A stretch of DNA of 64,000 nt from Candidatus Bathyarchaeota archaeon (lineage in GTDB: Archaea; Thermoproteota; Bathyarchaeia; Bathyarchaeales; Bathycorpusculaceae), in NCBI GenBank assembly GCA_963827165.1, contig CAWGZR010000005.1:640001-704000 (forward strand). The letters run 5' to 3'. The notes under the pieces are model-generated. The model was not told where the DNA came from. It did no database searches and saw only the letters and a list, made by a program, of their open reading frames with translations. Positions within the stretch are counted from its first letter, which is position 1; every line of letters starts with the position of its first letter. This document shows, piece by piece, positions 7,461 to 37,135 of this stretch. The translations under genes and the position numbers were made by a program.

Positions 7461-8837
7461 TTAGCTTCCTTTCATTCTCTTATTAAGGTAGTTTCTTAGC
7501 AGCAGCGCTCCGATACATAACACAAGGTACATTGTAATGAGAACTAATGCCACTGCAAAAGCAAAACACCATGAATAGAAATTGGCGTCTGTGAGGTTGC
7601 CCTTGCCAAGGTTGCCTATTATGGTTAAAGCTCCCGGTGATTCGTCAATTAAAACGGTTAACGACGGAAGTGGCTGATGGAGACTAAATATGTGCCACCA
7701 TGGGGTGGGAAAACCGAAAACGCCTGAACCTGTGTAGGTCCACAGCAAAATTAAAGTTTCTCCAAGCGCAACTCCGATTCCGAGCAAGATTCCGGTTATA
7801 ATGCCGGGCATTGCAGCGTAGAGTGTCACTAGTCGAGCCGTCTGCCACTGTGAAGCGCCAAGGGCAAATGATGCTTCTCTGTAAGATCTAGGCACAGACT
7901 TCATCGCTTCTTCTGCTACTCGAATGTTCCATGGGAGAGCCATAAAGGACAACGAGATTGCCGCACCCCATAGGCTGTAACCCCATTTTAACGTTACCGT
8001 GAAAATCGTAAATCCGATAATTGCAACGACCACGGAGGGTGACCCTGCCAGGGTTTCTATGAAGAAGCGAATAGTGCTTACAATTCTATTTTGAGTTGAG
8101 TATTCTGCAAGATAAATCGCTGCTCCAATGCCGATTGGCACAGCCACGAATTCACAGAAAGTCACAAGCAATAACGACCCGAGAGCGTAACCTAGCACTC
8201 CTCCAGTCGAACCGATCGGCGGATGTAGCCCCCCGGTTATTTCGTTGATCCCGTGATAATTAAGATTCATCGAAGTGAAAAGTTGCACTGATAAGAAAGG
8301 CGAAGCCATCAATATCACGAAAATTACCATAGCTATGACGACCCCTATGCTAAAAATTACTGAAAGTCTCAAACCCAGTTTCACCGCGTTTTCCATCACT
8401 ACCGGTGAATCTTTAGTCTGATGCTCCATTCTTCGTCTTTTTAAAATTTCCAGTGTTGCAGCTACGCCGCTTAAAAATGCGATTGAAAGCGCGATGTACA
8501 TAGTCGCTGAATCTGCAAAGGCTATCAATAATGCAATGCCACAAGTTGAAATCGATAATTTCCAGCCTAATGAATGTCCTTCCCAAAGTAGATATGCTGC
8601 GGAAAACAGAATAAGGGATGGGAGTATAATGAGCAGTGACATCAAGCCAAAAGACCAGTACTCATTGATCGTGAGTATGGAAAAGGCTAAACTATCCATG
8701 CCATCCACAAAATTGTTAACGCCCAAAATCAGAATAATAACTCCAGAAAATAGAAGAAGGCTTCCTGTTAACAGGTTTTCTTTTTTCTTTTTCTTGAAAA
8801 AGTTGAACGTTTTCGTTAACACCAGGCTGAAATTCAT
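7461..8837 (-). CDS. pstA: Phosphate ABC transporter permease PstA with extra N-terminal TM domain
   Basis: GIGAAIYLAEY, IETLAGSPSVV, EAA loop REASFALGASQWQT, GILLGIGVALGET. Confidence 0.9.
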   Translation of the reverse strand: MNFSLVLTKTFNFFKKKKKENLLTGSLLLFSGVIILILGVNNFVDGMDSLAFSILTINEYWSFGLMSLLIILPSLILFSAAYLLWEGHSLGWKLSISTCGIALLIAFADSATMYIALSIAFLSGVAATLEILKRRRMEHQTKDSPVVMENAVKLGLRLSVIFSIGVVIAMVIFVILMASPFLSVQLFTSMNLNYHGINEITGGLHPPIGSTGGVLGYALGSLLLVTFCEFVAVPIGIGAAIYLAEYSTQNRIVSTIRFFIETLAGSPSVVVAIIGFTIFTVTLKWGYSLWGAAISLSFMALPWNIRVAEEAMKSVPRSYREASFALGASQWQTARLVTLYAAMPGIITGILLGIGVALGETLILLWTYTGSGVFGFPTPWWHIFSLHQPLPSLTVLIDESPGALTIIGNLGKGNLTDANFYSWCFAFAVALVLITMYLVLCIGALLLRNYLNKRMKGS

Positions 8838-8844
8838 TCCCTTT

Positions 8845-9775
8845 TTACGCCCCCAGTGTTTTACTCCGCCTAGCTAAGACTGTTCTTGCCGCAATGTTAA
8901 CTAAGCCTATAAGCACAAATAAGAAAAAGCCAACGGCATAAACCCCAGCTCCAGGACTGCTGGTAGAATCTTGCGCGCCGACGTAAACATTTTGCATGAG
9001 GATAGACAAAGTTTGACTTTGAATAAACGGGTTGAAAATCGTTAAGGGGCTGTTAAACAATGCGGAAGAAACTGTTCCTCCAAGTACCCACTGGATGGCT
9101 ACCATTTCGCCCATGGCTGCGGCAAGAGCCAATAAAAACGATGTCAGAATCCTCGGCATGGCACTTGGAACCAAAACTTCCTTAACAGTTTGCCATTTGG
9201 TTGCGCCAATTCCAAGTGATGCTTCTCTTAAATCGTTGGGAACTGCTCTTAAGGCATCTTCTGAAATCGTGGCTATTACAGGAAAGGACATTATGAGAAG
9301 AATTAACCAGGCATAAAAATCACAGCCAAGTCCTTGCAATTTTAGTTGAGTGTGCAAGAAACTGCTGAATGAGTATCTGGCATCGGGCGTGGCCAGAAGT
9401 TGCCAACCTATTAGCCCGATAACTATTGAAGGAAATCCATCTAAGACTTCGAGGGAGGTTTTTGTAAAGTTTCTTAGTCTCATATCCGCAAATTCCGCCA
9501 TGTAAATTGCGCATGGAAAGCCCACAAGAACCGCCAATGCTGCAGCACTGCCAGCGATATACAATGTTCCTTCTGCGGCACCAGAAAGTACAGCTGCCCG
9601 CTACCAACAAAGGGGTCATAAAAGCGTAAACACCATGTAATAATAAGTTGATTATCTCAGGGTATCCCATAAATAGCAAGTAGCCGATGATGGACAAAAC
9701 TACAATTATTGAAAAAGCCGCGCAAAGGAACAGGATTGTCTTGATTAGCCCTTCCTTAAACGATTTATTGGCCAT
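8845..9775 (-). CDS. pstC: Phosphate ABC transporter permease PstC, frameshifted near 9570-9600
   Basis: N-terminus MANKSFKEGLIKTILFLCAAFSIIVV from ATG 9775 after a G-rich RBS. C-terminal part has AIYMAEFA, LEVLDGFPSIVIG, ISEDALRAVP..REASLGIGATKWQT, AMGE. Confidence 0.85.
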
Positions 9776-10012
9776 CTGTTCCCCCCTTTTGCTTCTATGA
9801 ATTATGTGGAAAAGGCTGGAAGCAGGCAAGATAACGCTTTTCTATTTATAATGTATAGTCTAATTAGAAATCGCGTGTAACAAGTAATCGCTTCGTTCTT
9901 CACTATAGCCTAAATTGTCTCCCATAAACTACGTCGGTAAGCTAGATATCTGCTAGCCCCGAACTTATGCTCAGAACGAGAAATCGTTCATTAGAGAAAG
10001 GAGAAATATAAA

Positions 10013-11737
10013 TTGAATAAAATACAAAAAATAATAGTATCTATGTTAGTTATAGCAATGAATGACTTTTTCAGCAGGCGCAGCACTACGTACATGACAT
10101 CTTACGGTCGCTTCCCTGGAGCTACCAACACGTTGGTAACCCCAGGCCAATTGACAGTCGCAGGCTCAAGCACAGTCGGTCCAATCGCTACCGAAGAGAT
10201 TAACCAGCGACTGCAGGGGGCAATTTCGTCAGCATACTGGAACAACTTAGTTAGCACTGGCGTCAGTTACTTCATCAGACATCAGTCAAGTTAACTTGGC
10301 AACCTTAGGCAGCGGAACTGCAGTTCCAGCATTAGCGACAACAACCGGCAACTGCTGACATCGGAGAAATGTCAAGACCACCAAGACGGCCGAATTTTCA
10401 ACCACAGGCATAGTAGACATGCAGCAATATGCAGTCGGCGTTGACAGTGTCGCAATCGTTGTAAGCCCTGACATGACATGGCTCCCAACAAGCCTCAACC
10501 ACAAGGTCAGAAGATTGCAGGTTGCACTATTCGCAGACACCACTCCAACAAACGACGGCAACCAAGGCCTCACAGGCGTTACAGGCTCCACAGCATTGTG
10601 CAAAACTTGGGATGACTTCTTCATAGCTCACATTCGGCATTTCAACCACAGGCGTTCCATCCGCAGCCTTATCTGCAGAACATTCTTCGCGCAGTCAGAG
10701 ATCCAACATCAGGAACATTCGACTGCTTCGACAACTATTTCATAGCTCCAAACGGCTACCAATTTGAAAACAAAGCAACTACATCGACAAGCCCCGGCCA
10801 GAACCACCGTTGACGGCTCACAACGCAAATGGCGCCATTCACATACTGCCAAGAAAACATAACATTTACAACACCGTAAGTGCAGGCAAACTAACCTCAT
10901 CCAGCGATTACATTGGCTTCATCTCACTAGGATACTTAAACAGCTACGGCGGACCACAGAATTGGGTAACAGGAACAGTAGCTAACCCAATCCCAGCCGG
11001 AATCACTTCAGCCACAACTATGATCGGCATCCCCATCTCATACAACCTGGCAGCAACACCATCAAGCGCCCCAGCAGGTTCTCCAACACCAATCCTCAAA
11101 TATTATGGCAGCTCAGGCACATACTCCTTCATAGGAAGCACCGTAAACGCACCAACTTGGGGAACAGCAGTCGCACCAACAGACGCTAACGTCATCTACT
11201 CTTACTCCGGAATCGCAGGCGCACAAGCAACAGGCATGTACAATGCATGGAGATGGCTATGGGAAGTTACCAGGTACAAACCATCTTCAGGCCCAACCTT
11301 AGTAGCAGGTGTTTGGATTGCTTACATGATGGCAGACGGCACAACTAACGCAGGCGAGACTCCAGTATCGAACTCCACGGCATCGGCTCAGGAACCAGCG
11401 ACTTTGTCGCAAGACCAAAACTACATTCTCACTCGAACGCGACGACATGGCAGGCGGACCAGTACTCGACTCTAACCTTGACAGCATACACCACACTGAA
11501 GCCTACGGCAACTCAGACTCAACATTCCCAACAGGTGTAGTCAACTTCAACGACATCACATACTTTGTTGCTGCATACATCGACTACAACGTAAACCACG
11601 TCTACAACCCATACGCAGACCAAAACGCAGACGGCGCCATCAACTTCAACGACATCAGCCTCTTCGTCGGAAACTACATAGCATACTACACAACTACGAA
11701 ACCCAACCATAAATCTCCCCCATCCTTTTTTATTTAA
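10013..11737 (+). CDS. pstS: Phosphate-binding protein PstS with C-terminal dockerin-like module; several indels
   Basis: Fragments across frames: LTVAGSSTVGP, GSGTAVPAL..DIGEMSRP, YAVGVDSVAIVV, RDPTSGTFDCF, IGFISLGY, WRWLWEVT. These are followed by VVNFNDITYFVAAY / DQNADGAINFNDISLFV. The gene is divergent from pstC. Confidence 0.82.
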
Positions 11738-11764
11738 ACAGATAATTGAAAGGAGAAACAAAAC

Positions 11765-14182
11765 ATGAACATTAAAACCTAAAACAAAACACATAGTAGC
11801 CTTGGCATTGACCCTTTTTATGGTCATGCTCGATGCTATTCGCGTGCGCGCATGCGGCGTATACCAGCGACCGGAACACCACCCTATCTTGATATTGTGC
11901 GCAACCGGCGGCGCTGCATCAACAAGCACCACCAATATTCCACTGAGCAGTTGGCACTCAATTCTCAGTAGATGTCCGAGTTGACAACTATGCAGACGTA
12001 AACCTTGGCCAGGCGCAAAAAACGGTATCAGCGGAGTCAGTTATGAGTCACATTGGAACCCAGCAGTGCTTACATACGTATCCATACTCAGAAGTCAATT
12101 GGCTACCATCACAATCAAACGCAGGTGACCTACAAAACCAGGTTGCATCAGGAAAAATAACCTTCGGACAGATTGCATTCTCAACGAGTAACCCATTCGC
12201 AGTAGCCTCAAGCGCAACTGGATCGGTATCCGCAACTATCACATTCCAAGTGGTCAGCCGCAGGCACAAGCGCTCTTACTCTTACACCTCAAGGCGCAGG
12301 CGTTCCATACATCGTCGCTCCACAAACAGTCGGAACACTCACATCAGGCCACGCAGTTACAGGATCACTCACATACAATGCACTATACAACCCACAAACA
12401 ACAGTCAGCCTATACGCAAATCCAGCAGACAGCGCAAACACCTTCCAGTTCGCAGCAGGCACAGACCCAATCGGCCAAACATTCCAAGTTGACATGTACA
12501 TCAACAACCCCAATGCAGTTCAAGTTTGGGGATGGAACTTAGGCGTAACATGGAATGCAGCAGCAATCCAACTGACAGGCATCACTGAAGGAACATACCT
12601 ATCAACAAGTAACCTAAACAATGCAAACGGCGCATCAACAATCTTCGTCCCAGGCTACGTAGACAACAACGCAGGAAACATCCCACAAGGAATCAGCGAC
12701 GTATACCTATCAGACTCCACAACAACCAACCCACAAGGTGTCCTTTGCACATTAACCTTCACCGTCATAAGCTTCACCAGCAGCAACATCAACCTAGTCC
12801 AAGGTATCCCATCACTTGAAACACTCGTAGGAACAACCCCCACGGCAGTTACACCAGCACCAGTGCTCCAAAACTTCCAATACATAACAAACTCCCCAGC
12901 AGCACCAACAAGCCCAGTTGCAAAAATCACCAACGGCGCCACAACCTACACCAACGGACAAGCCCTCTCACCAGCATTCAATTCAGGTGCATCATTCGGC
13001 TTGACCGCAGCGAACTCAGTTCCAGGAATGGACGTTATCCCGAACTCTGCAGATCTATCTTACCCGAGTTATCCAGTTACAGGATACTCATGGTCTTTCA
13101 CAGCAACTGCAGGCGCACCAACATTGTTCACAAGCCCAACGACAACTGAGACACTAAGCTTCCTCACACCAACAGTTAACTCACTTACCACATACACCGT
13201 ATCGCTAACAGTGACAACAGCATCAAATCCAAATGATGCGAGCTACATCCCAACAAGCATCGCAACAACATTCTCATTCCAAGTCCAGCCAGCATCAACC
13301 GCACCAACAACCGCAGGCGCACTATTAGACATCTACGTTACAAACCCGGGAACTCCAGTCTACAACCCATCAGTAGCCTCAACGACCAATCCAATGTACG
13401 TCCCTGACGGAAACAACGGCAACCCACTCGCAGCAGGAACAAGCGCATATACACCAAACTCCTACAGCGACGCATTCGGCCCACAAGCAGCCATGATCTT
13501 AACCGGCGTCGTAACATTCAACGGCGCACCAGTCGCAAACAAAGAAGTAACCTTCAATGTCGTAAACAATCAAGGCGTAGTAATTGGAACATACACCGCA
13601 ATGACCGACGAGAACGGAATCGCAACAGTTAGCTACAGACTTCCATGGTTTGACGGCACTTATGCAACTGGCCCAGCAAGCGAATTCGGTATCTGGAGCG
13701 TAAAGGGAGCAGTTGAAGTTCAACAAACAATCGTAACTGACAACATGCCATTCGACTTCGGAGACATAATAAGCATAGTCAGCGGCAGCGTAACACCAGC
13801 CTCATCCTCAGTGCCAAGAAGCACACTAACGATATCTACAAGCCAATCATTCACAGTCGGCCTCTCAGGCATCTCCGACCAGTCGCAAGCCTACTGGATG
13901 TCCTACACCGTGATTGATGCAGGAAACGTACCAGTCGCAACCGGCGTAGTATCATCATCAATGCCAGCAGCAGCGTACTCATCAACAGGCGGATTGACTG
14001 TAACTCCAAGCACAAGCAGCACAGGCGCATCATTCGTAATCCCGTCATATGCATTCGTCGGAACCGCAACAATCGTCGTTAACCTCTACAATGCAAACCC
14101 AGTCACTTCACTAAACACGGCCGTAACCTACTGCCCACAAGCATCAGCAACCTTCACAATAGCTATACCCTTCGGCGAATAA
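11765..14182 (+). CDS. Major scaffoldin-like secreted protein: two cohesin-like domains, PKD-like domain, Big_1-like domain, C-terminal IPSYAFVG domain; indels in the 5' part
   Basis: ATG 11765 follows the RBS AAGGAG. Cohesin 1 is WLPSQSNAGD..GQIAF..SATITFQV and cohesin 2 is VDMYINN..GWNLGVTWN..TEGTYL..LCTLTFTV. The 12494..14182 portion is intact. Confidence 0.75.
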
Positions 14183-14424: not shown

Positions 14425-15480
14425 ATGAATAAGAAATTCCTATTAGCAGTTTTTCTCATTGGGATCGTCTTGGCAACCGTAGTTGTGGAAGTCAGAGCCA
14501 TCAACGCTTCAACGGTGACTTTAACACTTGGCAATAACGCGAACAATCCCTCTACACAATACCCAGCCGACGCGTACTCGCTATTCACGTTAAATCAAAC
14601 CATGATATACAACGACATCGTACAAACACAGTACCCGACCGATGGGCTCGTAGGAGTACAAATCCAGGATCCAAACGGCGCCACAATGGTAATCAGGACG
14701 CTGCAAACAGGCACCACAATTCCAGACTCAATACCCATCACCATAAGCGAAGCATTCCTGTGCAACAGTGGCGAACAGAATATTACCAGCATAACGATCC
14801 CATCCGGCACCAACTTGTTTGTTCCGCAGATTTATTTCACTGTCTACAACAATCAGGCTACAGCGCAATCACTAATAGTTACCCTCAACGTATATGACAG
14901 CAACGGCATACCGTTCCCTGCAGTATCCCAAGTTATGCCTAATGTTCCGGCTTACACCTCAAAAGAATCCACTCTAAATTTCTATATCCCGTCGTGGGCT
15001 CACTACGGCACAGCTACAGCGTATGTCGACGTTTACACCGCCATGCCCAATAATAACGGCTATCCACTGGGAAAAGAATACAACTTCCCATTCACAATAA
15101 CAGGCGGGACAGCATACCAAGGTCTCCAGCCAATGACACAGAGTAAAAATGGTTCCCCAACTAACTTCTTCAGCATGTCTTTTAGACTGCCGCAGTACTC
15201 TGACGTCACACTTGGCGCCTTCACGGTCACATCCACAGCAAACTACCTGGGCGTCATGGGTTCAGAAACAACACCTTTCAGCGTCCAAGAGTTTGCAGAC
15301 GTTAATGGAGATAGCGCCGTAAACTTCAATGACATAACAAACTTTGTTGCGCTATACATAAACTACTTCGCGAACCATGTATACAGCCCACAAATAGACT
15401 TCATACATGACGGAAGTGTAATTAACTTCAATGATGTAGCTCTCTTCGTAGCGTACTACATTCAGGCTTGGAGCTCATAA
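14425..15480 (+). CDS. Secreted protein with IPSWAHYG domain and C-terminal dockerin-like module
   Basis: Signal peptide; DVNGDSAVNFNDITNFVALY..NHVYSP..DFIHDGSVINFND, very similar to the PstS dockerin. Confidence 0.8.
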   Translation: MNKKFLLAVFLIGIVLATVVVEVRAINASTVTLTLGNNANNPSTQYPADAYSLFTLNQTMIYNDIVQTQYPTDGLVGVQIQDPNGATMVIRTLQTGTTIPDSIPITISEAFLCNSGEQNITSITIPSGTNLFVPQIYFTVYNNQATAQSLIVTLNVYDSNGIPFPAVSQVMPNVPAYTSKESTLNFYIPSWAHYGTATAYVDVYTAMPNNNGYPLGKEYNFPFTITGGTAYQGLQPMTQSKNGSPTNFFSMSFRLPQYSDVTLGAFTVTSTANYLGVMGSETTPFSVQEFADVNGDSAVNFNDITNFVALYINYFANHVYSPQIDFIHDGSVINFNDVALFVAYYIQAWSS

Positions 15481-15485
15481 GAAGC

Positions 15486-16835
15486 ATGAGAAAAAAAACA
15501 ATCGCTCTGCTGATCCTCACTATCTTAGCTTTCTCTATTTTTCCTTTTGTTCCAAATACGAAGGCTCAAGGTACATCGCCAACCGTTTCACTTACGCCTT
15601 CAACAACTCAAGTGACACAGGTCAATCAATACATCTTCCTAAACGTTACAATAACTGATGTTCAAAACCTCTGGGCATGGACCGCTACTGTCACTTGGGA
15701 TCCAACAGCACTAACCCTGATTGGTTCTCCAACAGAAGGAAGCTTCCTTCAACAAGCGGGCACCACAGAATTTATCCCCACTCCTGCGAAAAACCAACCG
15801 GGCGCAGAGGTCATTAATGACGCAGTTCTGGGCTATGCCGGAGCAAGCGGAAACGGAGACTTAGCGACGATCGAGTTCCAAGTAATAGGACAAACTTCAA
15901 CAACCGTTCAGCTGGGCAATATAACTATAGAAGGTCCACCTCCAAGCGGATCGTTGTACGGCACCTCAATAACACTTGCAGCGACTTCTTCATCAGCAAC
16001 AATCACCTTTGTTTCAGGCGGAGTCCCAGCAGCCGACGCTGGACCGGACCAAACGGTTACGCAGGGCACAACAGTAACCTTCGACGGCTCAAAATCTCTA
16101 CCATCATCCATCACATCATACTCATGGAACTTTGTGTATAATGGCGCTAACGAATCGCTTACCGGCGTAAATCCCACTTTCGCATTTAACCTCCCGGGTA
16201 TATACGTTGTTACACTAATAGCTACAGACGCAAACGGCCCCAGTACACCGACAACAGTAACAATAACAGTCAATAGCAGCAGCAAACCAATCGCCGTAAT
16301 CGCGGGCGTCAGCCAAGGGCAATCAGTCCCGACAGGACAACCTATAACCCTTAGCGGCACAGGAAGTTCCGAGCCTAACAACGGAACTATAGCCAAATAC
16401 CTGTGGGGCGTTAACCTTATCTCACAAACAAGCACTGCCGGCAAAACCAGCCAAGAGACAGGAGGCGCTTTAGCGATAGGATCAAACGCCACCGTAACAT
16501 ACACTTTTTCGTCCTTTGCGTCAGATCTGAAATCAGAAACCTACAACATTACGCTAACAGTTTTCGACGCAACCAACCAAAACAACACCGCCACCACACA
16601 AATTACTGTTGTCCGCGGCACAGGCGCAACCTCAACCCCTACAGCAACCAGCTCAACTACGACATCAACCCCTGGATCCACTTCCACTTCGGGTGCAACT
16701 TCAAGCCCAACTCCCGCCTCCACATCGGACGACGGGCCACAGGCAGGTCTGCCACCCGAGGTAATAGCAATCACAGTAATCATCACTATACTGGCACTCT
16801 GCGGATCAACCATCTGGCTAAGAAAAAGAACCTAA
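15486..16835 (+). CDS. Membrane-anchored cohesin protein: cohesin, 2 PKD domains, S/T linker, C-terminal TM
   Basis: Cohesin LNVTITDVQNLWAW..TWDPTAL..EGSFL..GDLATIEFQV; PKD ADAGPDQTV..FDGSKS..YSWNF..PGIYVVTL; TM followed by RKRT tail. Confidence 0.82.
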   Translation: MRKKTIALLILTILAFSIFPFVPNTKAQGTSPTVSLTPSTTQVTQVNQYIFLNVTITDVQNLWAWTATVTWDPTALTLIGSPTEGSFLQQAGTTEFIPTPAKNQPGAEVINDAVLGYAGASGNGDLATIEFQVIGQTSTTVQLGNITIEGPPPSGSLYGTSITLAATSSSATITFVSGGVPAADAGPDQTVTQGTTVTFDGSKSLPSSITSYSWNFVYNGANESLTGVNPTFAFNLPGIYVVTLIATDANGPSTPTTVTITVNSSSKPIAVIAGVSQGQSVPTGQPITLSGTGSSEPNNGTIAKYLWGVNLISQTSTAGKTSQETGGALAIGSNATVTYTFSSFASDLKSETYNITLTVFDATNQNNTATTQITVVRGTGATSTPTATSSTTTSTPGSTSTSGATSSPTPASTSDDGPQAGLPPEVIAITVIITILALCGSTIWLRKRT

Positions 16836-16990: not shown

Positions 16991-17788
16991 ATGAAGAAAT
17001 TCGTGTTAGCAGTTTTTCTCGCAGTCCTCGCTTTGGTAAGCGTCATAGCAATTTACCCTTCACACGCAAGCACGGCAACAACGATGAGTATCGACTCATC
17101 TACCCAACAATTTCCCTCAGCCACGGTTGGATCCACCATACAAATAAACATTGAAGTAAGCAATGTGCAGGGTCTTTGGGCATGGGACGTAGCTGGGTTG
17201 ACGTTTAATCCTGCATACTTGAATTTAACAGGTGCTAGCGAAGGTCCGTTCCTTCAAAAAGCTGGACAGACTCTATTCATCTGGACTTCAACTTCCCAAG
17301 TTTCCTTCGCCAAAGGCGTCATTCCAGACATATCTGACGCGCTGCTTTCCTATTCCACTGAAAGCGGAAGCGGCGTCCTTGTTACCTTAACGTTCCAAGT
17401 TCTTTCCTTGGGTACTTCACAAGTAGCTTTTAACCAAACGACCCTCGATACCCCAATAAACGAAGCGACAGGAGGACACACGGACTTTGAGCAAATCCCC
17501 TGCACGAACATTAACGCAAACATAGTTTTAGGGCCAAATACAGCTACGCCTTCACCAACATTTACATCGAATCCTTCCTCAACCCCCGTCAGTTCGACCT
17601 CTCCAAAATCATCAACCACACCCACAGCATCTTCAACCGCCAAAGCATCCTCATCTCCTAACTTGACATCCACCCCGACACAAAACGCCCCGGAATATCC
17701 AATCGTCTCAATCTTAATAGTGCTTTTCGCTGTCATCACACTCTCAACTTTAGTGCTCGCCACGAAGGCTAAAGTCAACAAAAAATAG
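16991..17788 (+). CDS. Cohesin anchor protein with S/T/P linker and PEF-CTERM-like sorting signal
   Basis: Cohesin INIEVSNVQGLWAW..FNPAYL..EGPFL..GVLVTLTFQV; C-terminal APEYP, TM and KAKVNKK. Confidence 0.82.
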   Translation: MKKFVLAVFLAVLALVSVIAIYPSHASTATTMSIDSSTQQFPSATVGSTIQINIEVSNVQGLWAWDVAGLTFNPAYLNLTGASEGPFLQKAGQTLFIWTSTSQVSFAKGVIPDISDALLSYSTESGSGVLVTLTFQVLSLGTSQVAFNQTTLDTPINEATGGHTDFEQIPCTNINANIVLGPNTATPSPTFTSNPSSTPVSSTSPKSSTTPTASSTAKASSSPNLTSTPTQNAPEYPIVSILIVLFAVITLSTLVLATKAKVNKK

Positions 17789-18182: not shown

Positions 18183-19871
18183 TTGGTCCTGGTCTGTATC
18201 TTTGCAATTTCTGTTTTTTCAGTAATGACGCACTTTATCAATGCTCAAACTGGTCCAATTTTAAGTATCGTTCCAACAGGCGATCCGGGGGCTACCAGCA
18301 TCACTATGCTTTCAACCCAAACCGTCGGCACAACCTTTTCCGTCGATGTCCGGATTGACGACTACTCAACCGTAAATATTGGCGGAACTAACAATGGTAT
18401 TAACGGAGCCAGTTATGTGGTGACCTGGGATCCAACAGTTCTGGCGTATCAATCTTATACTGATGGAGCTTGGCTTCCATCCCAATCAAACACTGGCGAT
18501 TTGTCAAACAAGGTCGCGAACGGACAATTAACCATAGGTCAAATCGCTTTCGGAAGCAGCAGTTTTATAACCGCTGATAGCGCTTCTGGGTCAGTTTCAG
18601 CAACCATTATATTCCAAGTTCTCAGTAACAGTGTCGGTACCACCATTGGACTTGAGCAGCAAGGAGCAAACGTTCCTTACCTTATTGCGCCGGAAACCGT
18701 AGGCGGACTCACCTCAGGCCATGCGGTTTCTGATGTTACCGCTGTGAATGCGCAATACGGAACAGTGGCTTCACCTACTCCCTCGCCCACTGGGACACCT
18801 ATACCTACTTCTTCCCCAACTCCGACACCTACCCCCACACCAACATCTTCCCCTACCCCAACGCCGACTTCTTCTCCTACACCCTCAGGACAAACCCAGG
18901 GACCAATAGCCATTATCACTAATCAAAATGGAACAACATACCAAACTGGTGAACCAATACTTCTTGATGGCGGTACCTCAACTGCAGGATACGATGCAAA
19001 TAGTGCAGAAACGTGCCCAATAACAAATTACGCTTGGCTAGTTCAGTACGAGAACGACTCTGTATTCGGTGTCTATAGCGGTGGGGGCGTAACAATTAAC
19101 GTAAACAGTGCAACGTCGCTTCATGTCACTTTGATAGTAACTGCCCCAGACGTTGATACTTCACCAAATTCTCAATACACAAACACTTCGACGACAAGCG
19201 TTTGGATTAATGTCCAAACAGCTCAGTCACTAACAAAAATGGATTTCTTCTCCAGCCAAAGCGTCTATGGACCGCAACAACTGGTGCAACTATATGTATA
19301 CGTCACGTATAATGGGGCGCCTGAACCCAATGAAAACGTGGCATTTACTGTAATAAATCCGAGTGGCACAATTGTCTCTGTGCGTACGGCCTTCACTAAT
19401 GAAACAGGCTACGCCTACACGGATTATATAACACCCAACATTGCATCGTCGATTGGGACATGGACTGCCATATCATCGGTAGAGGTCAACCAAGTAATAA
19501 TCACTAACAAGATTACCTATGAATATAACTACCTGGTCACCGTCACAACCAACGGCATTACAGTCCCCTCAACTGTTGCAAGAGGCGGCACAATAACCGT
19601 CACAGTGGCCATCCAAAACACCGGTGACATAACACTCAGCTCAGTTGTAACCATCACGATTTACGACCAGGACAACGTACCCATAGCCACCGACCTGCTT
19701 CCTGTAACCAACGCTGCTAGCGGGGCAACGGTTTCAGGAACATTTACTATTCCAACCTGGGCTGCCGTTGGAGAAGCAACGGTTTACGTTAACATCTTAT
19801 CGGCTGACCCTACAGCAGGTGGAGTCCCGTTGTGCCCTGAACAGACAGCAAATTTCCAAATAACCGCATGA
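18183..19871 (+). CDS. Scaffoldin paralog: cohesin, PT linker, PKD-like, Big_1-like and IPTWAAVG domains
   Basis: FSVDVRID..VTWDPTVL..WLPSQSNTGD..GQIAF..SATIIFQV; TPTPTP tract at ~18770-18890; C-terminal IPTWAAVGEATVYVN..CPEQ. The true start may lie ~28 nt upstream (TKHKKIICL is in frame, possible indel). Confidence 0.8.
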   Translation: MVLVCIFAISVFSVMTHFINAQTGPILSIVPTGDPGATSITMLSTQTVGTTFSVDVRIDDYSTVNIGGTNNGINGASYVVTWDPTVLAYQSYTDGAWLPSQSNTGDLSNKVANGQLTIGQIAFGSSSFITADSASGSVSATIIFQVLSNSVGTTIGLEQQGANVPYLIAPETVGGLTSGHAVSDVTAVNAQYGTVASPTPSPTGTPIPTSSPTPTPTPTPTSSPTPTPTSSPTPSGQTQGPIAIITNQNGTTYQTGEPILLDGGTSTAGYDANSAETCPITNYAWLVQYENDSVFGVYSGGGVTINVNSATSLHVTLIVTAPDVDTSPNSQYTNTSTTSVWINVQTAQSLTKMDFFSSQSVYGPQQLVQLYVYVTYNGAPEPNENVAFTVINPSGTIVSVRTAFTNETGYAYTDYITPNIASSIGTWTAISSVEVNQVIITNKITYEYNYLVTVTTNGITVPSTVARGGTITVTVAIQNTGDITLSSVVTITIYDQDNVPIATDLLPVTNAASGATVSGTFTIPTWAAVGEATVYVNILSADPTAGGVPLCPEQTANFQITA

Positions 19872-19881
19872 GTAGAGAAAA

Positions 19882-21537
19882 ATGATAGTGCCCAAGCTTA
19901 AGACGATAAAACGTAAATCTGTAATTTGCCTACTGTTGACTTTTCTCATTATCTTTTCTGTTTTCTCTTCGGCAACGCGTTTGATTAATGCTGCAAGCGC
20001 CCCCGTTTTAAGTATTGTTCCAACTGGCATCGGCGGCGCCACCTCAGGTACCACAACTATGATTCAATCAGAAGCGGTTGGCTCCAATTTCTCAGTAGAT
20101 ATCAGAGTTGACAACTACGCGAGTGTCAATATTGGCGGCAAAAACAACGGTGTCAGTGGAGCAAGCTACTTTGTCACTTGGAACCCTGCAGTGCTTGGGC
20201 TTGTATCTTACACTGATGAAAAATGGCTTCCCTCCCAGTCGAGCACAGGTGATTTTTCAGGTAACGTAACACTTGGGCAACTTCTCATAGGTCAAATCGC
20301 TTTCGACCTGAGCAGCCCTTTTCTGACTGCTAATAGCACTTCTGGGTCAGTATCCGTTACGATAAAGTTTGAAGTGCTGTCGACCGGTTCAACCCTTATT
20401 TCACTTTCGCCCCAGAAGGGCGTTGCATACCTTTTGGCTCCTCAGACGGCGGGGGATGGAATCACGGCAGGTTACGCAGTGTCGGGAACTTTAACAGCGA
20501 ACGCACAATATGGCCCATCATCGGGATTAAGCAGTCCGTCACTTTACGGCCCCACTGCCGTTTTCACTCCCATGGACGGGTCAGCCTTCAAATTAGGCAC
20601 ACCCATAACGTTAAATGCAACGTTATCCACACCCGGCAATGACACCCAAATCTGCGACATAACAAACTACGCATGGAGCGTTGAATATCTCAATGGAACA
20701 ACACTCACCTCGCTCACAGGAGACGCCACAACATTCACCCCCGATGCTCTCGGATCGTTCCGCGTAATTCTCATCGTTACAGCCCCAGACGTTAGCCCAT
20801 CTCCTAACCCTGACTATTCAAGTACAGATAGCACTAGCGCAATAATCAACGTAATTTCCAGCGCGCTTAGCATCGACGTATTTACTGATAAAGAAGGCAT
20901 CGGCCAAGGAGCAAGCGAAGGCGCATACGGGCCTCTTCAATTGGTGCCAACATACGCGTTAGTCACAACTAGCGATACTCCGTTGGCAGACCAAAGTGTT
21001 TTTTTCACTATACTTGACGCGAACGGAACCTCTTATTACAGGCAAGGAGTCACAAACGAAACCGGCATTGCTACAATTCAACCCAGCTTCAGACTTCCAG
21101 CTCCTGACTTTGGTTCTCCTCAAACAGGCTTCGGAACATGGTCAATAACCGCGACAACCAGCGTCCTAAATGTCATAGCAAACGATACCACAACCTTCAC
21201 CTTCAACTACTTGAGCGGGATAGAAAACATAACACTCCCCACCAGTATCCACGCAACCGAAACATTGCCCATACAGCTAACCATAAACAACATAGCCCTT
21301 TCTGAACAATGGACACAGTTAAGCATCACAATATTTGACCAGGCAGGTATACCCATAGGTTCCTCCACTCTGACGGCAACTCAACAAACCCAAGACCTAA
21401 CCGTCGTAGACGCAGCAATCACCATTCCTTCATGGGCATTCACTGGGCAAGCAACCGTTTATCTTTGCCTAATTTCTAACTCAACAAACATCCCATTGGC
21501 CCCGGAAAGCATTGCCAACTTCAATATTCTGTCATGA
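19882..21537 (+). CDS. Scaffoldin paralog: cohesin, PKD-like, Big_1-like and IPSWAFTG domains
   Basis: Collinear homology with 18183..19871 (FSVDIRVDNYASVNIGG..TWNPAVL..WLPSQS..GQIAF; ITNYAW; IPSWAFTGQATVY). Confidence 0.8.
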   Translation: MIVPKLKTIKRKSVICLLLTFLIIFSVFSSATRLINAASAPVLSIVPTGIGGATSGTTTMIQSEAVGSNFSVDIRVDNYASVNIGGKNNGVSGASYFVTWNPAVLGLVSYTDEKWLPSQSSTGDFSGNVTLGQLLIGQIAFDLSSPFLTANSTSGSVSVTIKFEVLSTGSTLISLSPQKGVAYLLAPQTAGDGITAGYAVSGTLTANAQYGPSSGLSSPSLYGPTAVFTPMDGSAFKLGTPITLNATLSTPGNDTQICDITNYAWSVEYLNGTTLTSLTGDATTFTPDALGSFRVILIVTAPDVSPSPNPDYSSTDSTSAIINVISSALSIDVFTDKEGIGQGASEGAYGPLQLVPTYALVTTSDTPLADQSVFFTILDANGTSYYRQGVTNETGIATIQPSFRLPAPDFGSPQTGFGTWSITATTSVLNVIANDTTTFTFNYLSGIENITLPTSIHATETLPIQLTINNIALSEQWTQLSITIFDQAGIPIGSSTLTATQQTQDLTVVDAAITIPSWAFTGQATVYLCLISNSTNIPLAPESIANFNILS

Positions 21538-28305: not shown

Positions 28306-28490
28306 TGAAACTAATAACAGAAAAACTTCTCTGCAAAGGCCGATTCAAAAATCGGCACCCGAGAGGGCAAAATGTGCAATCAAAACGTTTTCTAAATAGA
28401 CTATTTTCTCTTGCTCAGTCTCAATGTTGACTATGGCGATAAGTGTCATATGGATAAACCATCCATACAGCTCTCTTGGTTGAGAGGCTT

Positions 28491-31233: not shown

Positions 31234-31791
31234 TTAATTAGGCGCAACGTAAATTGGCAAATCTTTTTTCAGAACAATTTGCGCGTCAAACCTCGAGAAG
31301 AGAAAAAAAACCAAGATTACATCCACGCACAAATCGAAAACAGATGCTGGTGCTCCTAAAGATCCGAGAAAGAGGAACTGTACGAATTGAAAAAGGGCAG
31401 CCAAGGCGAATATTGCTAACGCTGTGACGCGAGCAAGCTTATGTCTAACCCAAAGCCCTAAACCAACGAGCAGAAGGTCTAAGCCAATAAGCCACGATAC
31501 TAAACCTGCGCTTGAAGCACTCACATTTGCGATGTCACCGATATAAAATGGGATTCCAGGAACCCAGCTGACAGCAGAAACCATTGATTGAGCCGCTTGG
31601 TTTGAGGTGCCCGCGCCGGTTAGCATCAGGTAAAGCCCACCTACGATCAAAACCATGCCAAACGTTATAACTAATTTGCTAACTAAATCCGTGATAAGTA
31701 TGCGGTCTGACAAATATTTTTTAAGTTTATTTATTTGATCAGTCAAAGGTGAAAAAAAGTTCTTTGCTTCTCCCAACATATGATCACACAA
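31234..31791 (-). CDS. Small polytopic membrane protein, overlapping the phoU stop codon
   Basis: About four hydrophobic segments; GLGLWVRHKLAR motif resembles the PstA N-terminal extension. Confidence 0.7.
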   Translation of the reverse strand: MCDHMLGEAKNFFSPLTDQINKLKKYLSDRILITDLVSKLVITFGMVLIVGGLYLMLTGAGTSNQAAQSMVSAVSWVPGIPFYIGDIANVSASSAGLVSWLIGLDLLLVGLGLWVRHKLARVTALAIFALAALFQFVQFLFLGSLGAPASVFDLCVDVILVFFLFSRFDAQIVLKKDLPIYVAPN

Positions 31792-32827
31792 GTATCGAAT
31801 CCACTGTCAAGTTTAGAACTATTTCGGCAATGTCGCAGGAATACTCAGCTGTCCTCCTTATGCTTTCGATTATTAGTCTTAAACTTGCAATATCTTCGAG
31901 GTCAATCTTGGCTGATGCAACCGCCTCCCTCTCCAATATGCCGACCTCCTTAATGCTCTCTATAATTGTCTCAGCTGAGTTGTAGTCTTGCCTGAAAAGT
32001 GATTCCATCGCAGTGTCGAACATCTTTATAGCTACGGCGCTCATTTTCTCTATTTTTTCTGAGACATCACAATTCAACTTGTGTTTAAGCGCCAAAACGT
32101 TATCCGCTATCTTAACTGCGTGGTCAGCAGTCCGTTCTATTGACTTTGTGACAAGACGGTAACCCAAGGAGTCTTTACCGCTTGCAAGGCCAATTTCTTT
32201 GCTTACTCGTGGGTTTTGCATTGCCATCTTTAGCTGCCTTATCACATAAAGATTGAATCTGTCTACTTCGTTATCCGTGGTCATGACATCTTTTAGCAGT
32301 AAATTATCGTTTGCGTTAAGACCTAATATAGCGTCTCTGTGCATCGATGCTGTAATTATACTCATTCTTCTCAATGCGCTTTGAATAGTCAATTCAGGGT
32401 AACTCAATAGGACCTGCAAAATCAGCTGAGCGGAAGTGTCGGTCACAATTTCGGTCCCAACAAGCATTCGCCGAACAAAAGCCTTCATGTCATGTCTTTG
32501 CTTGGACGATAATTGTTGTTTGTCTGATCTAACATGGATTGAATTATAACCTGATAGATAGGCTGACACGATCTTTCTGTTAATCATTTCAGTGTCGTCG
32601 TCTGGGCGAACCATGATTGTTGCTTCATCAAGCTTTTTCTTTAATTTGGTGCTCGGGGGAACTATCGTTAGAGATCCGCCTTCTTCTTCATGGAGTCTTA
32701 TGAAACTTCCTTTTTTAATTTGATTTTGCTCAATCCAGTTTTTCGGCAACGAAATAATGTATGTAGAGCCGCCTGTAAACTGAATTTTTCGTGTTTCATC
32801 GTCCACTTTTGGCTGCCACAAAGTCAT
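31784..32827 (-). CDS. phoU: Archaeal phosphate regulator with AbrB/SpoVT DNA-binding domain and two PhoU domains
   Basis: RKIQFTGGSTYIISLPKNW N-terminus; DNEVDRF, IERTADHA, IRRTAEYSCDIAE PhoU repeats. Confidence 0.92.
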   Translation of the reverse strand: MTLWQPKVDDETRKIQFTGGSTYIISLPKNWIEQNQIKKGSFIRLHEEEGGSLTIVPPSTKLKKKLDEATIMVRPDDDTEMINRKIVSAYLSGYNSIHVRSDKQQLSSKQRHDMKAFVRRMLVGTEIVTDTSAQLILQVLLSYPELTIQSALRRMSIITASMHRDAILGLNANDNLLLKDVMTTDNEVDRFNLYVIRQLKMAMQNPRVSKEIGLASGKDSLGYRLVTKSIERTADHAVKIADNVLALKHKLNCDVSEKIEKMSAVAIKMFDTAMESLFRQDYNSAETIIESIKEVGILEREAVASAKIDLEDIASLRLIIESIRRTAEYSCDIAEIVLNLTVDSILV

Positions 32828-33077: not shown

Positions 33078-33830
33078 TTGGGGAAAGTGGAAACTAAGAA
33101 ATTCAACCTGTGGTTCAAGAATAATCACGTTTTAAAAGACGTCGATTTCACAGTCCAAGAAAATGCCGTAACAGCTATCATGGGACCTTCAGGATGTGGC
33201 AAATCTACGCTTCTGCGTTCAATTGATCGCATGAATGATCTCATCACTGGCTGTCGTACACAAGGAGAAATACTTTTTGACGGCCAAAATATCTATGCTG
33301 AAGACAGCAACGTTTACGAGCTGAGAAGAAGAATAGGCATGGTTTTTCAAAAGGCTAATCCGTTCCCAAAATCGATTTATGAAAACGTGGCTTTTGGTCC
33401 AAAAATACACAGCATGGCAAAAGGTGAAAAACTCGATGAATTTGTGGAGAAAAGCCTTAGAGGAGCTGCTTTATGGGACGAGGTTAAAGACCGTCTACAC
33501 GAAAGTGCCTTTGCCCTTTCAGGAGGCCAGCAACAGCGGCTTTGTATAGCGCGTGCGTTGGCAGTGGAGCCTGAGCTTATTCTGATGGATGAGCCCTGTA
33601 GTGCTTTGGATCCTGCCGCGACCCTAAAAATCGAAGCGCTCGCTGCTGAGCTTAAGAAAAAGTATACTGTTATTATTGTGACTCATAATTTGCAGCAGGC
33701 GGCTAGAGTGTCTGATTTCACTGCTTTTATGTACGTCGGGCAGTTGATTGAATTTGATGATACGAAAACTCTGTTTGAGAACCCGCGGAACCAGTTGACT
33801 CAAGACTACATTAAGGGTCAGTTCGGTTAG
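33078..33830 (+). CDS. pstB: Phosphate ABC transporter ATPase PstB
   Basis: [59 protein letters not shown]. Confidence 0.96.
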
Positions 33831-35433: not shown

Positions 35434-35742
35434 GTGGATAACATGCGAAGGTTTGAGGAAATAAAGGGCACTTTAGCCAAGCACAAACAGGAATTGCGGC
35501 GGGATTTTGGTGTTAAGCAGATAGGTGTCTTCGGGTCTTACGTTAGAGGCGAGCAGAAAAAACAAAGCGACATCGATTTATTGGTTGAGTTCGAGGAACC
35601 TTCAAACCTAACACTTCTAGACTTCATCAGATTGGAAAATTCATTAAGCGAGATGCTGGGTGTCAAAGTAGATTTAGTAGAAAAACAAACTCTTAAGCCA
35701 AGAATGGGCAAACACATCCTTGAAGAAGTTGTCAACGTATGA
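35434..35742 (+). CDS. Minimal nucleotidyltransferase antitoxin (MntA type)
   Basis: GVFGSYVRGEQKKQSDIDLLVEF contains the GSx10DxD motif. Confidence 0.92.
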   Translation: MDNMRRFEEIKGTLAKHKQELRRDFGVKQIGVFGSYVRGEQKKQSDIDLLVEFEEPSNLTLLDFIRLENSLSEMLGVKVDLVEKQTLKPRMGKHILEEVVNV

Positions 35743-36086
35743 AAAATGAATATTTGGATTACGTTGAGGACATAATCAAGGCGATGGATGACGCCTCAAA
35801 ATTTGTCAAAGACCTGAATTATGACTCTTTTGTAAAAGATAGAAAAACTGTTTACGCCGTTATTAGGGCCTTGGAAATTATTGGAGAAGCAACCAAAAAT
35901 ATCCCTTCCGGCGTCAAGAATCAATACCCTGAGATTCCATGGAAAGATATGGCTGGAATGCGAGACAAGGTAATTCATGCTTATTTTGGGGTTGACTTGA
36001 AAAGAATTTGGAGCACCGTTAGCAGCGATATTCCGAGTTTGAAAGCTTGTTTTGAAAAGATGCTTAGGGAAAATGAGAACCGATAG
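35739..36086 (+). CDS. HEPN RNase toxin (DUF86/HepT type)
   Basis: LEIIGEA..PEIPWKDMAGMRDKVIHAYFG contains Rx4HxY; overlaps the antitoxin stop by ATGA. Confidence 0.92.
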   Translation: MKNEYLDYVEDIIKAMDDASKFVKDLNYDSFVKDRKTVYAVIRALEIIGEATKNIPSGVKNQYPEIPWKDMAGMRDKVIHAYFGVDLKRIWSTVSSDIPSLKACFEKMLRENENR

Positions 36087-36871: not shown

Positions 36872-37135
36872 ATGACAGAGCAAATCGAGGCTGTCATAAA
36901 GGTTTCACCTAAAGGTCAAATTGTAATTCCCAGAGAGATTCGAAAGAAATTGGGCCTAAAGGGAGGCGAGAAACTTTTAGTTCTCACTCGCGACGGCGAT
37001 ATATTGCTTAGAAAAGCCCAAGATATGTCCATGGAGGACATAGCTAAGAAAATTGGAAAGACAGTGCGAGAAGAGTCCATTGACGTTGACAAGCTTGTGG
37101 CTGAGGCTGTCGAGCGGGCAAGAAAGTCAAAGTAG
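36872..37135 (+). CDS. AbrB/MazE/SpoVT-family antitoxin
   Basis: KVSPKGQIVIPREIRKKLGLKGGEKL. Confidence 0.9.
   Translation: MTEQIEAVIKVSPKGQIVIPREIRKKLGLKGGEKLLVLTRDGDILLRKAQDMSMEDIAKKIGKTVREESIDVDKLVAEAVERARKSK

Follow-up and report, generated by a model that had tools for sequence, protein, structure and literature searches.

Can the phosphate-binding receptor of an archaeal ATP-binding cassette (ABC) importer be held at the cell surface by a dockerin in place of a lipid or a membrane helix? The question is raised by a gene at positions 10013-11737 (+ strand) of a window of 64,000 nucleotides (nt) from a Candidatus Bathyarchaeota archaeon (contig CAWGZR010000005.1, positions 640,001 to 704,000), which starts with TTG behind a GGAG motif and which we call pstS-dockerin. 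Archaeal and monoderm ABC importers are thought to require a binding protein anchored by a lipid or a helix. A first-pass annotation of this DNA had reported motifs of the phosphate-binding protein PstS running into a C-terminal dockerin, with no lipobox and no C-terminal transmembrane (TM) helix. The motifs that it listed (AGSSTV, GSG, VDSVAIVV, RDPTSGT and IGFISLGY), and the two-repeat dockerin after them, are indeed all found on the + strand, but in different frames, and the listing of open reading frames (ORFs) divides 10013-11737 into four separate ORFs (10013-10294, 10419-10745, 10810-11475 and 11447-11737). The reported order is thus real and intact orthologs carry it in a single ORF, whereas the window copy is not one ORF; because its motifs sit in different frames, the single-ORF fusion is visible only in intact relatives.

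Genomes of the same genus encode the protein in single ORFs of 466 amino acids (aa; genome G020) and 455 aa (genome G016), in which a hydrophobic N-terminus is followed by the PstS motifs and the C-terminal module. A search of a large protein collection with the G020 protein returned 105 clusters, most of them at 90-100% query coverage. An alignment of 89 family members drawn from these clusters (A1) revealed the order signal peptide, PstS domain, dockerin and stop. Judged from these sequences, the fusion of PstS and dockerin is a real and conserved architecture: the intact orthologs have the dockerin in the same gene and possess no lipobox. Pfam marks both domains in only one of the 105 clusters, and searches by domain architecture would therefore miss the family.

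The PstS-type (type II periplasmic binding protein) domain of the window copy extends from 10124 to 11430 (+) and contains the motifs AGSSTV, GSGTA, ADIGEMSRPP and RDPTSGT. Five residues are invariant in A1 (G48, S49, D111, S224 and G225), and nine more (S50, T51, G95, S96, G97, R220, D221, T223 and T226) are conserved in at least 90% of the 89 sequences. The ligand motifs of A1 align with the matching motifs of the structure 4omb. The SST, GSG, Asp and R..SGT elements, which we take from E. coli PstS to be those of the phosphate site, are all present in the window copy. When the A1 profile was compared with the PDB, all ten matches were phosphate-binding proteins. The AlphaFold2 model of P0047 (552 aa), the closest intact ortholog of the window copy, had a predicted local distance difference test score of 89.3 and a predicted template modelling score of 0.88; all 40 Foldseek rows listed for this model within ranks 1-49 were PstS, PhoX or DING proteins, with 4jwo as the best match (E 1.2e-11). 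Curated profiles gave mixed results. The PF12849 gathering cut-off (GA) of 27 bits was exceeded by G020 (39.6), P0098 (54.1), P0100 (53), P0105 (70.2), P0026 (30.1) and P0003 (29.9), and PF12849 gave no match for P0047, P0051, P0065, P0063 and G016; neither did a PF12849 search of the archaeon's own genome recover the window copy, nor did Pfam match any of six window pieces of the gene searched singly (E<=0.1).

The PstS model TIGR02136 reached only 60.9, 43.3 and 37.2 bits, far under its cut-off of 206.6, and the family therefore represents a divergent PstS clade with large insertions. Such scores could also mean that the domain now binds a different oxyanion or has taken on a role outside transport, such as sensing or scaffolding, and no longer works as a phosphate receptor. 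The size of the second-lobe insertions points the same way (552 aa in P0047 as compared to about 300 aa in solved PstS proteins), as do two degenerate relatives: the single ORFs at L005:457-2970 (genome G004, 837 aa) and L016:973-3378 (contig C4 of the archaeon's own genome, G000) each combine a PstS-like domain with a dockerin and one or two cohesins, and in both the SST and R..SGT motifs are degenerate. In these two fusions a scaffold may have co-opted the binding-protein fold as a building block. For the family itself we regard such a change of role as quite improbable, since the window copy has retained the ligand motifs, which show little or no variation in A1, and since the neighbouring genes are pstC, pstA, pstB and phoU according to NCBIfam. 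The binding domain of PstS-dockerin is probably a phosphate-type receptor by its motifs and modelled fold, with phosphate as the predicted ligand.

Dockerin module and cohesin genes of the pst locus

The dockerin module of the window copy, with its two helix repeats, lies at 11522-11704 (+), where a search of the archaeon's own genome with a dockerin profile matched it. It comprises the C-terminal 60 residues and is modelled as two helices (residues 39-55 and 72-88 of the module; 499-515 and 532-549 of P0047), each preceded by a loop. The second loop has the full calcium-binding pattern DxNxDGxINxND. A profile of 19 dockerin modules (A2) retrieved dockerins first from the PDB (2y3n_B with E 1.6e-4, then 4fl4, 6kg9, 2mte and 1daq). 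VIA-align of a model of the window's own module placed dockerins at ranks 1-6 of 48,161 chains with Z-scores from 5.6 to 4.0, the best being 2vn5_B (Z 5.6, 2.4 Å over 51 residues), and Dockerin_1 (PF00404, GA 22.9) scored 27.4 bits in P0098.

Several results on this module weigh against a conventional dockerin. Its first calcium loop is truncated to the distal half, and this loop is complete in the paralogous window dockerins at 15250 and 23152. Dockerin_1 remained under its GA in four of the five members for which a score was reported (P0003 21.2, G020 19.9, P0026 18.1 and P0100 16.8 bits) and matched neither P0047 nor the window pieces (E<=0.1), while NF041540 gave 25.3 bits for a cut-off of 29. 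A Foldseek search with the 91-residue dockerin model returned nothing at E<=0.001, with dockerins weakly on top. The VIA-align Z-scores are modest in absolute terms, a size expected for so small a domain. Weak EF-hand matches accompany the dockerin ones. Complex prediction for the cohesin encoded at 16991 (A3) with the PstS dockerin (A2, residues 27-91) gave interface scores (ipSAE) of 0.24 and 0.23 where 0.32 is the mark, which is neither support nor counter-evidence.

The surroundings of the gene bear out, at the level of gene linkage, the connection between scaffold and phosphate uptake that had been proposed in the first-pass annotation: pstC and pstA are located on one side, and cohesin genes, two of them with a C-terminal TM helix, on the other. 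The permease gene pstC (8845-9829, -) is divergent from pstS-dockerin, carries two frameshifts (9581 and 9619) and scored 157 bits with TIGR02138 on a 239-aa piece; next to it, pstA (7461-8837, -, 458 aa) reached 174.4 bits with TIGR00974 (cut-off 193.45). The PstA model covers residues 159-450 only; the roughly 150 residues that extend the protein at its N-terminus include hydrophobic segments and are conserved in related loci.

Directly downstream of pstS-dockerin, a gene at 11766-14182 (+) encodes a signal peptide, two cohesins and an Ig-like tail and aligns from end to end with a 780-aa ortholog (L025). It is followed by a gene for a 351-aa secreted protein with a C-terminal dockerin and a CARDB/Ig-like lead (14425-15480, +) and by two genes for membrane-anchored cohesins, both on the + strand. 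The first of these (15468-16835), which has orthologs in related loci, encodes a signal peptide, a cohesin (match at 15639-15938), a PKD domain and a C-terminal TM helix followed by basic residues. In the second (16991-17788), signal peptide and cohesin are joined by a Ser/Thr/Pro-rich linker to a C-terminal TM helix, again with basic residues behind it. The cohesin of the latter scored 21.2 bits with the Pfam model (PF00963, GA 24.1) and 90 bits with a cohesin of G004; PF00963 itself gave 27.2 bits in the protein encoded at 18183, 39 bits in G004 and a weaker match in the protein encoded at 19882. By tblastn, the window contains at least seven cohesin modules; further cohesin proteins are encoded at 28476 and 29849. 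Between the two sets of pst genes there is thus a series of genes for secreted proteins that bear cohesins or C-terminal dockerins.

These genes belong to a 48-kb cohesin-dockerin island (G000:C5:622896-670783, corresponding to window positions of about -17100 to 30783), which holds 13 of the 15 dockerin matches of the genome and is bracketed by pstA/pstC and by phoU/pstB. At its far edge lie a gene for an AbrB/MazE-PhoU-domain phosphate regulator (31784-32827, -) and the ATPase gene pstB (33078-33830, +; TIGR00972 395.7 bits, cut-off 343.2), both about 20 kb downstream of pstS-dockerin. The cargo domains that could be named are CARDB, Ig-like, PKD and BsuPI. We considered the island as a phosphate-acquisition complex with phosphatase or nuclease cargo and dropped this idea, as the only leads from Pfam and the protein atlas were to CARDB, Ig-like, BsuPI and dockerin domains; no carbohydrate-active enzyme, glycoside hydrolase or phosphatase was detected by these two resources among the island proteins tested.

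When a single genome of each species was scanned, 19 related loci were identified. Seventeen of them come from contigs titled as metagenome-assembled genomes (MAGs) of Bathyarchaeota or Bathyarchaeia; the other two are titled bacteria, and we suspect that they are mis-binned. An upstream pstC on the opposite strand, together with a same-strand cohesin gene that begins 121-792 nt downstream, is a feature of 17 of the 19 loci; the other two are additional copies on contigs that had already contributed a locus. A cohesin ORF ending in a C-terminal TM helix occurs at least once within 10 kb downstream in 14 of the 19. Two of the five loci lacking one are these additional copies; among the other three, the downstream sequence amounts to only 688 nt in one, the contig end truncates the second and the third is itself frameshifted.

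The most compact arrangement is that of locus L040 (L040:10001-15031), with the order phoU, pstA and pstC, then divergently pstS-dockerin, a cohesin-dockerin adaptor (239 aa), a cohesin-PKD-PKD-TM protein (403 aa) and pstB. The adaptor has a signal peptide, a cohesin and, at its end, a canonical-looking type I dockerin; it and the cohesin-PKD-PKD-TM protein are the only ORFs of at least 200 aa listed between pstS-dockerin and pstB. This order suggests a three-tier tether, as far as it can be read from the genes. The L040 contig is titled as an Acidobacteriota MAG, and its genes resemble those of the Bathyarchaeia loci; mis-binning is possible.

The linkage also bears on another explanation of the C-terminal module, namely that it is a calcium-binding, EF-hand-like tail for stabilisation or self-association that has no cohesin partner, the synteny then reflecting an unrelated island of surface proteins inserted into the pst operon. 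The EF-hand matches, the degenerate first calcium loop and the mostly Ig-like/CARDB cargo of the island, which has no link to phosphate, are what this explanation would lead one to expect. It would not account for the same type of module ending 13 proteins of an island that holds at least seven cohesin modules, for a gene order (pstCA, pstS-dockerin, cohesin) that persists in 17 of 19 loci although protein identities are 37-55%, for an L040 interval in which all listed ORFs of at least 200 aa are cohesin genes, or for the natural single-ORF fusions of PstS-like, dockerin and cohesin modules in G004 and on C4. We assign it very little probability and continue to read the module as a dockerin.

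Beside the island, at the window edge, lies a fragment of a MULE/Mutator-family transposase (3-779, -). Beyond pstB, an ORF-poor stretch at 33.9-38.5 kb holds small ordinary genes; within it, two overlapping ORFs (35434-35742, 102 aa, and 35739-36086, 115 aa; both +) have, on visual inspection, the look of a toxin-antitoxin pair of the nucleotidyltransferase/HEPN type, and an 87-aa ORF (36872-37135, +) appears AbrB/SpoVT-like. A search of the whole window with Rfam gave no match.

Frameshifts between 9581 and 12259

If the family is intact in relatives, why is the window copy broken? A frameshift-aware alignment of P0047 with the window DNA required 20 frame changes, 14 of +1 and 6 of +2. Read along P0047, the copy contains no in-frame stop, and 477 of 548 residues (87%) are identical. 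Further frameshifts are located in pstC (the two mentioned above) and in the 5' part of the two-cohesin gene (seven, 11774-12259), which is in frame from 12259 to its stop at 14182. In total, 29 inferred frameshifts in three genes define a patch of 2.7 kb at 9581-12259 with sharp borders, and other large ORFs of the window (1392, 945, 804 and 769 aa) are unbroken.

We compared window positions 9300-12600 with short-read contigs (X1-X4) from four public soil-metagenome runs of two studies, in some of which cover was absent over parts of this range. The flanking pieces 9300-9447, 12349-12533 and 12507-12600 agreed with the contigs without any mismatch or gap. Pieces inside the patch differed by 0-5 substitutions and 1-16 gaps: one of them aligned 224 contig nt with 238 window nt at 4 mismatches and 16 gaps, and further pieces were free of mismatches, with 3 gaps or 1 gap. 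At three positions (12053, 12084 and 12254) a single base is missing from all four runs, and the latter two agree with frameshifts inferred independently (12084 and 12259). Over the gene body the contigs differ from the window by 1-4%, and therefore may represent close strains and not the same genome; this tempers the comparison.

The frameshifts are very probably errors of an unpolished stretch of a long-read assembly and not signs of gene decay, because indels outnumber substitutions, nonsense codons are absent and the patch is sharply bounded. The need to repair indels, already raised in the first-pass annotation, is consistent with this assessment. A genuine pseudogene, in a strain that has lost the dockerin-PstS system and depends on a canonical pst operon, would account for the 20 frame changes and for the breaks in pstC and the two-cohesin gene as well, and the genome does possess a second pstS-pstC locus, on contig C12. 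Yet decay would hardly leave a copy free of in-frame stops with 87% identity to P0047, confine its indels to a sharply bounded 2.7-kb patch and show a ratio of indels to substitutions, relative to the short-read contigs, that is typical of long-read consensus error; we regard it as very improbable. Assembly error also offers an explanation for the 3' end of the gene. In one short-read contig, which departs from the window sequence at 11692, a stop follows within a few codons, as in P0047; a further indel has probably shifted the stop seen at 11737, and the true one would lie about 20 nt upstream of that position. A local failure of polishing can thus mimic a pseudogene, and gene calls within the patch will look like pseudogenes.

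Protein ends and the mode of anchoring

Both statements of the first-pass annotation about the protein ends hold for the family. The first 45 residues contain no cysteine in 87 of the 89 members, which leaves no lipobox there, and all 89 end within a few residues of the second dockerin helix, without a hydrophobic segment after the dockerin. A lipobox as a family feature was rejected, a cysteine being present in 2 of 89 only; one of these two, P0052, has an L-S-C-G-like string.

The N-terminus of the window copy (10013-10100, +) resembles a signal peptide, with a K-rich n-region, a hydrophobic core and a c-region of small residues as given by the family consensus from A1; the window segment itself carries frameshifts at 10061 and 10089. 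Throughout the family a basic n-region and a hydrophobic core precede a conserved small/polar stretch, in which Ser20 (79 of 89 members) is followed by Ala-rich positions and by xHA, xNA or TRA. An A-x-A pattern was counted in 82 of 83 sequences, a loose heuristic and weak evidence. Taken together, these features have the appearance of a Sec signal peptide that includes a site for signal peptidase I, at which cleavage would be expected. A class III (pilin-like) signal peptide has G or A at position -1 directly after the basic n-region; this class was set aside, as no such residue is found there.

The main rival to tethering by cohesins is an N-terminal helix that is left uncleaved and itself anchors PstS, the dockerin then recruiting cohesin-bearing surface proteins or building PstS into a cross-linked lattice at the surface. 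The archaeon's canonical PstS paralogs, on contigs C9 (372 aa, L009:1396-2514) and C12 (444 aa, L010:1234-3571, followed by pstC), are anchored in this way: both have N-terminal TM helices, no dockerin and, in one case, a long Pro/Thr/Ser linker. The hydrophobic segment of the family, at about 20 residues, is long enough to span a membrane, which counts against our account as much as it favours the rival, and the conserved neighbour, the two-cohesin protein of 11766-14182, has no TM helix, no dockerin and no anchor of its own, and so would itself need a hold. Three features of the N-terminus argue for cleavage. The hydrophobic core is short and gives way to the conserved small/polar c-region (AFS-AA ... 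xHA/xNA/TRA); the whole resembles the N-termini of island cohesin proteins that already bear a C-terminal TM helix; and it is unlike the uniform helices of 22-23 residues of the C9 and C12 proteins. An uncleaved anchor appears to us rather unlikely on this balance. As ordinary PstS proteins are also encoded in the genome, the dockerin form belongs to a second Pst system.

We consider it fairly probable that PstS-dockerin, encoded by a gene that is intact in nature, is secreted by the Sec pathway of this soil/peat archaeon, acts as receptor of the adjacent PstCA(B) transporter and owes its retention at the cell surface to a dockerin that docks onto cohesins. In this mechanism, PstS-dockerin would serve as the binding protein of the divergently encoded PstC/PstA permease, with PstB and the PhoU-type regulator encoded beyond the island. 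It would be exported and its signal peptide removed, after which neither a covalent nor a hydrophobic anchor would remain. The dockerin would then dock, in a calcium-dependent manner, onto cohesins encoded directly downstream and thereby retain PstS at the surface. As candidate partners, the two proteins that combine one cohesin with a flexible linker and a C-terminal membrane helix would keep it near PstCA. Architecture, ligand motifs, fold, gene linkage and conservation among relatives are observations; removal of the signal peptide, docking, the partner cohesin and phosphate as ligand are predictions. A further point against the proposal is the rarity of the family. A1 matched at E<=1e-20 in 7 of 201 sampled genomes of the order; of the six matching genomes besides that of the window, five matched over the full length.

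A broader and more tentative reading is that the pst operon of some soil and peat Bathyarchaeia might possess its own cohesin-dockerin kit, with free PstS plugged, possibly in many copies and through adaptor tiers, onto membrane stalks or multi-cohesin scaffolds to form a cellulosome-like "harvesting antenna" for nutrient uptake. If true, it would be the first time that the operon of an ABC importer itself supplies a modular, non-covalent scaffold by which the receptor is positioned. A receptor held by cohesin and dockerin would represent a third, modular way of anchoring next to lipid and helix. Possible gains include a variable stoichiometry, stalks shared by interchangeable receptors and presentation outside the S-layer; these might be useful for scavenging phosphate in peat and soil. 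The enigmatic non-cellulosomal cohesin-dockerin systems of archaea would also gain a cargo with a clear and assayable function, the binding of phosphate.

Comparison with known systems

How new is such an arrangement? Dockerin-tagged ABC binding proteins of the NikA/OppA and TroA types have been noted in anaerobic methanotrophic (ANME) archaea (Chadwick et al. 2022, PLoS Biol, PMC9012536), and because of these proteins, as they appear in the accessible text of that paper, PstS-dockerin is less surprising than first thought; the novelty claimed in the first-pass annotation was overrated. As with PstS-dockerin, the ANME case is one of an extracytoplasmic binding protein of an archaeal ABC importer with a dockerin attached, encoded in a genome in which non-cellulosomal cohesins and dockerins abound, and the accessible text proposes their surface attachment from genomics alone (PMC9012536). 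They differ in that ANME belong to the Halobacteriota and that NikA/OppA and TroA are named in this text, not PstS or Bathyarchaeia, although the supplementary lists might include a PstS. The same text mentions no operon-level linkage of cohesin anchors (PMC9012536), whereas here cohesin genes are enclosed by the pst genes, in an order conserved at 17 of the 19 loci. Our literature search, with subscription journals and supplements outside its scope, found no paper on PstS-dockerin or on cohesin anchors within a pst operon, and both appear new.

Non-cellulosomal cohesins and dockerins as such are known in archaea (PMC9012536, accessible text). According to the same text, a cohesin/dockerin pair of Archaeoglobus fulgidus was reported as verified to bind (Bayer 1999; Haimovitz 2008). 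This pair resembles the modules of the island as a non-cellulosomal archaeal system and, as far as that account goes, belongs to another phylum, with other cargo and no transporter context.

The solved canonical PstS proteins (4jwo, 4omb, 8ods, 1ixi and 9k3x, among others) have in common with the family the type II fold, the SST, GSG, D and R..SGT motifs and the adjacency of pstC and pstA. The family is set apart by an identity of only about 12-16%, by its large insertions and by scores far under the cut-offs of curated PstS models. Where canonical PstS proteins have a lipid or TM anchor, the family has a C-terminal dockerin, while the ordinary PstS proteins of the same genome use N-terminal TM helices.

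Compared to the type I pairs of bacterial cellulosomes (such as 2vn5, 1ohz and 2ccl), the family likewise ends a secreted cargo with a two-helix module of duplicated calcium loops, and the island likewise has cohesin proteins nearby, some of them anchored to the cell. The cargo of the cellulosome is a glycoside hydrolase; that of PstS-dockerin is a transport receptor, and its first calcium loop is truncated. Anchoring in the island relies on C-terminal TM helices, as opposed to SLH (S-layer homology) domains or sortase in cellulosomes.

A further archaeal alternative to the anchoring of ABC binding proteins by lipid or TM helix is the "bindosome" of Sulfolobus, in which sugar-binding proteins with pilin-like class III signal peptides are assembled at the surface by a system with a dedicated assembly ATPase. 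PstS-dockerin would represent the same kind of departure reached by another route, as the family has no class III-type motif and bears a C-terminal dockerin instead.

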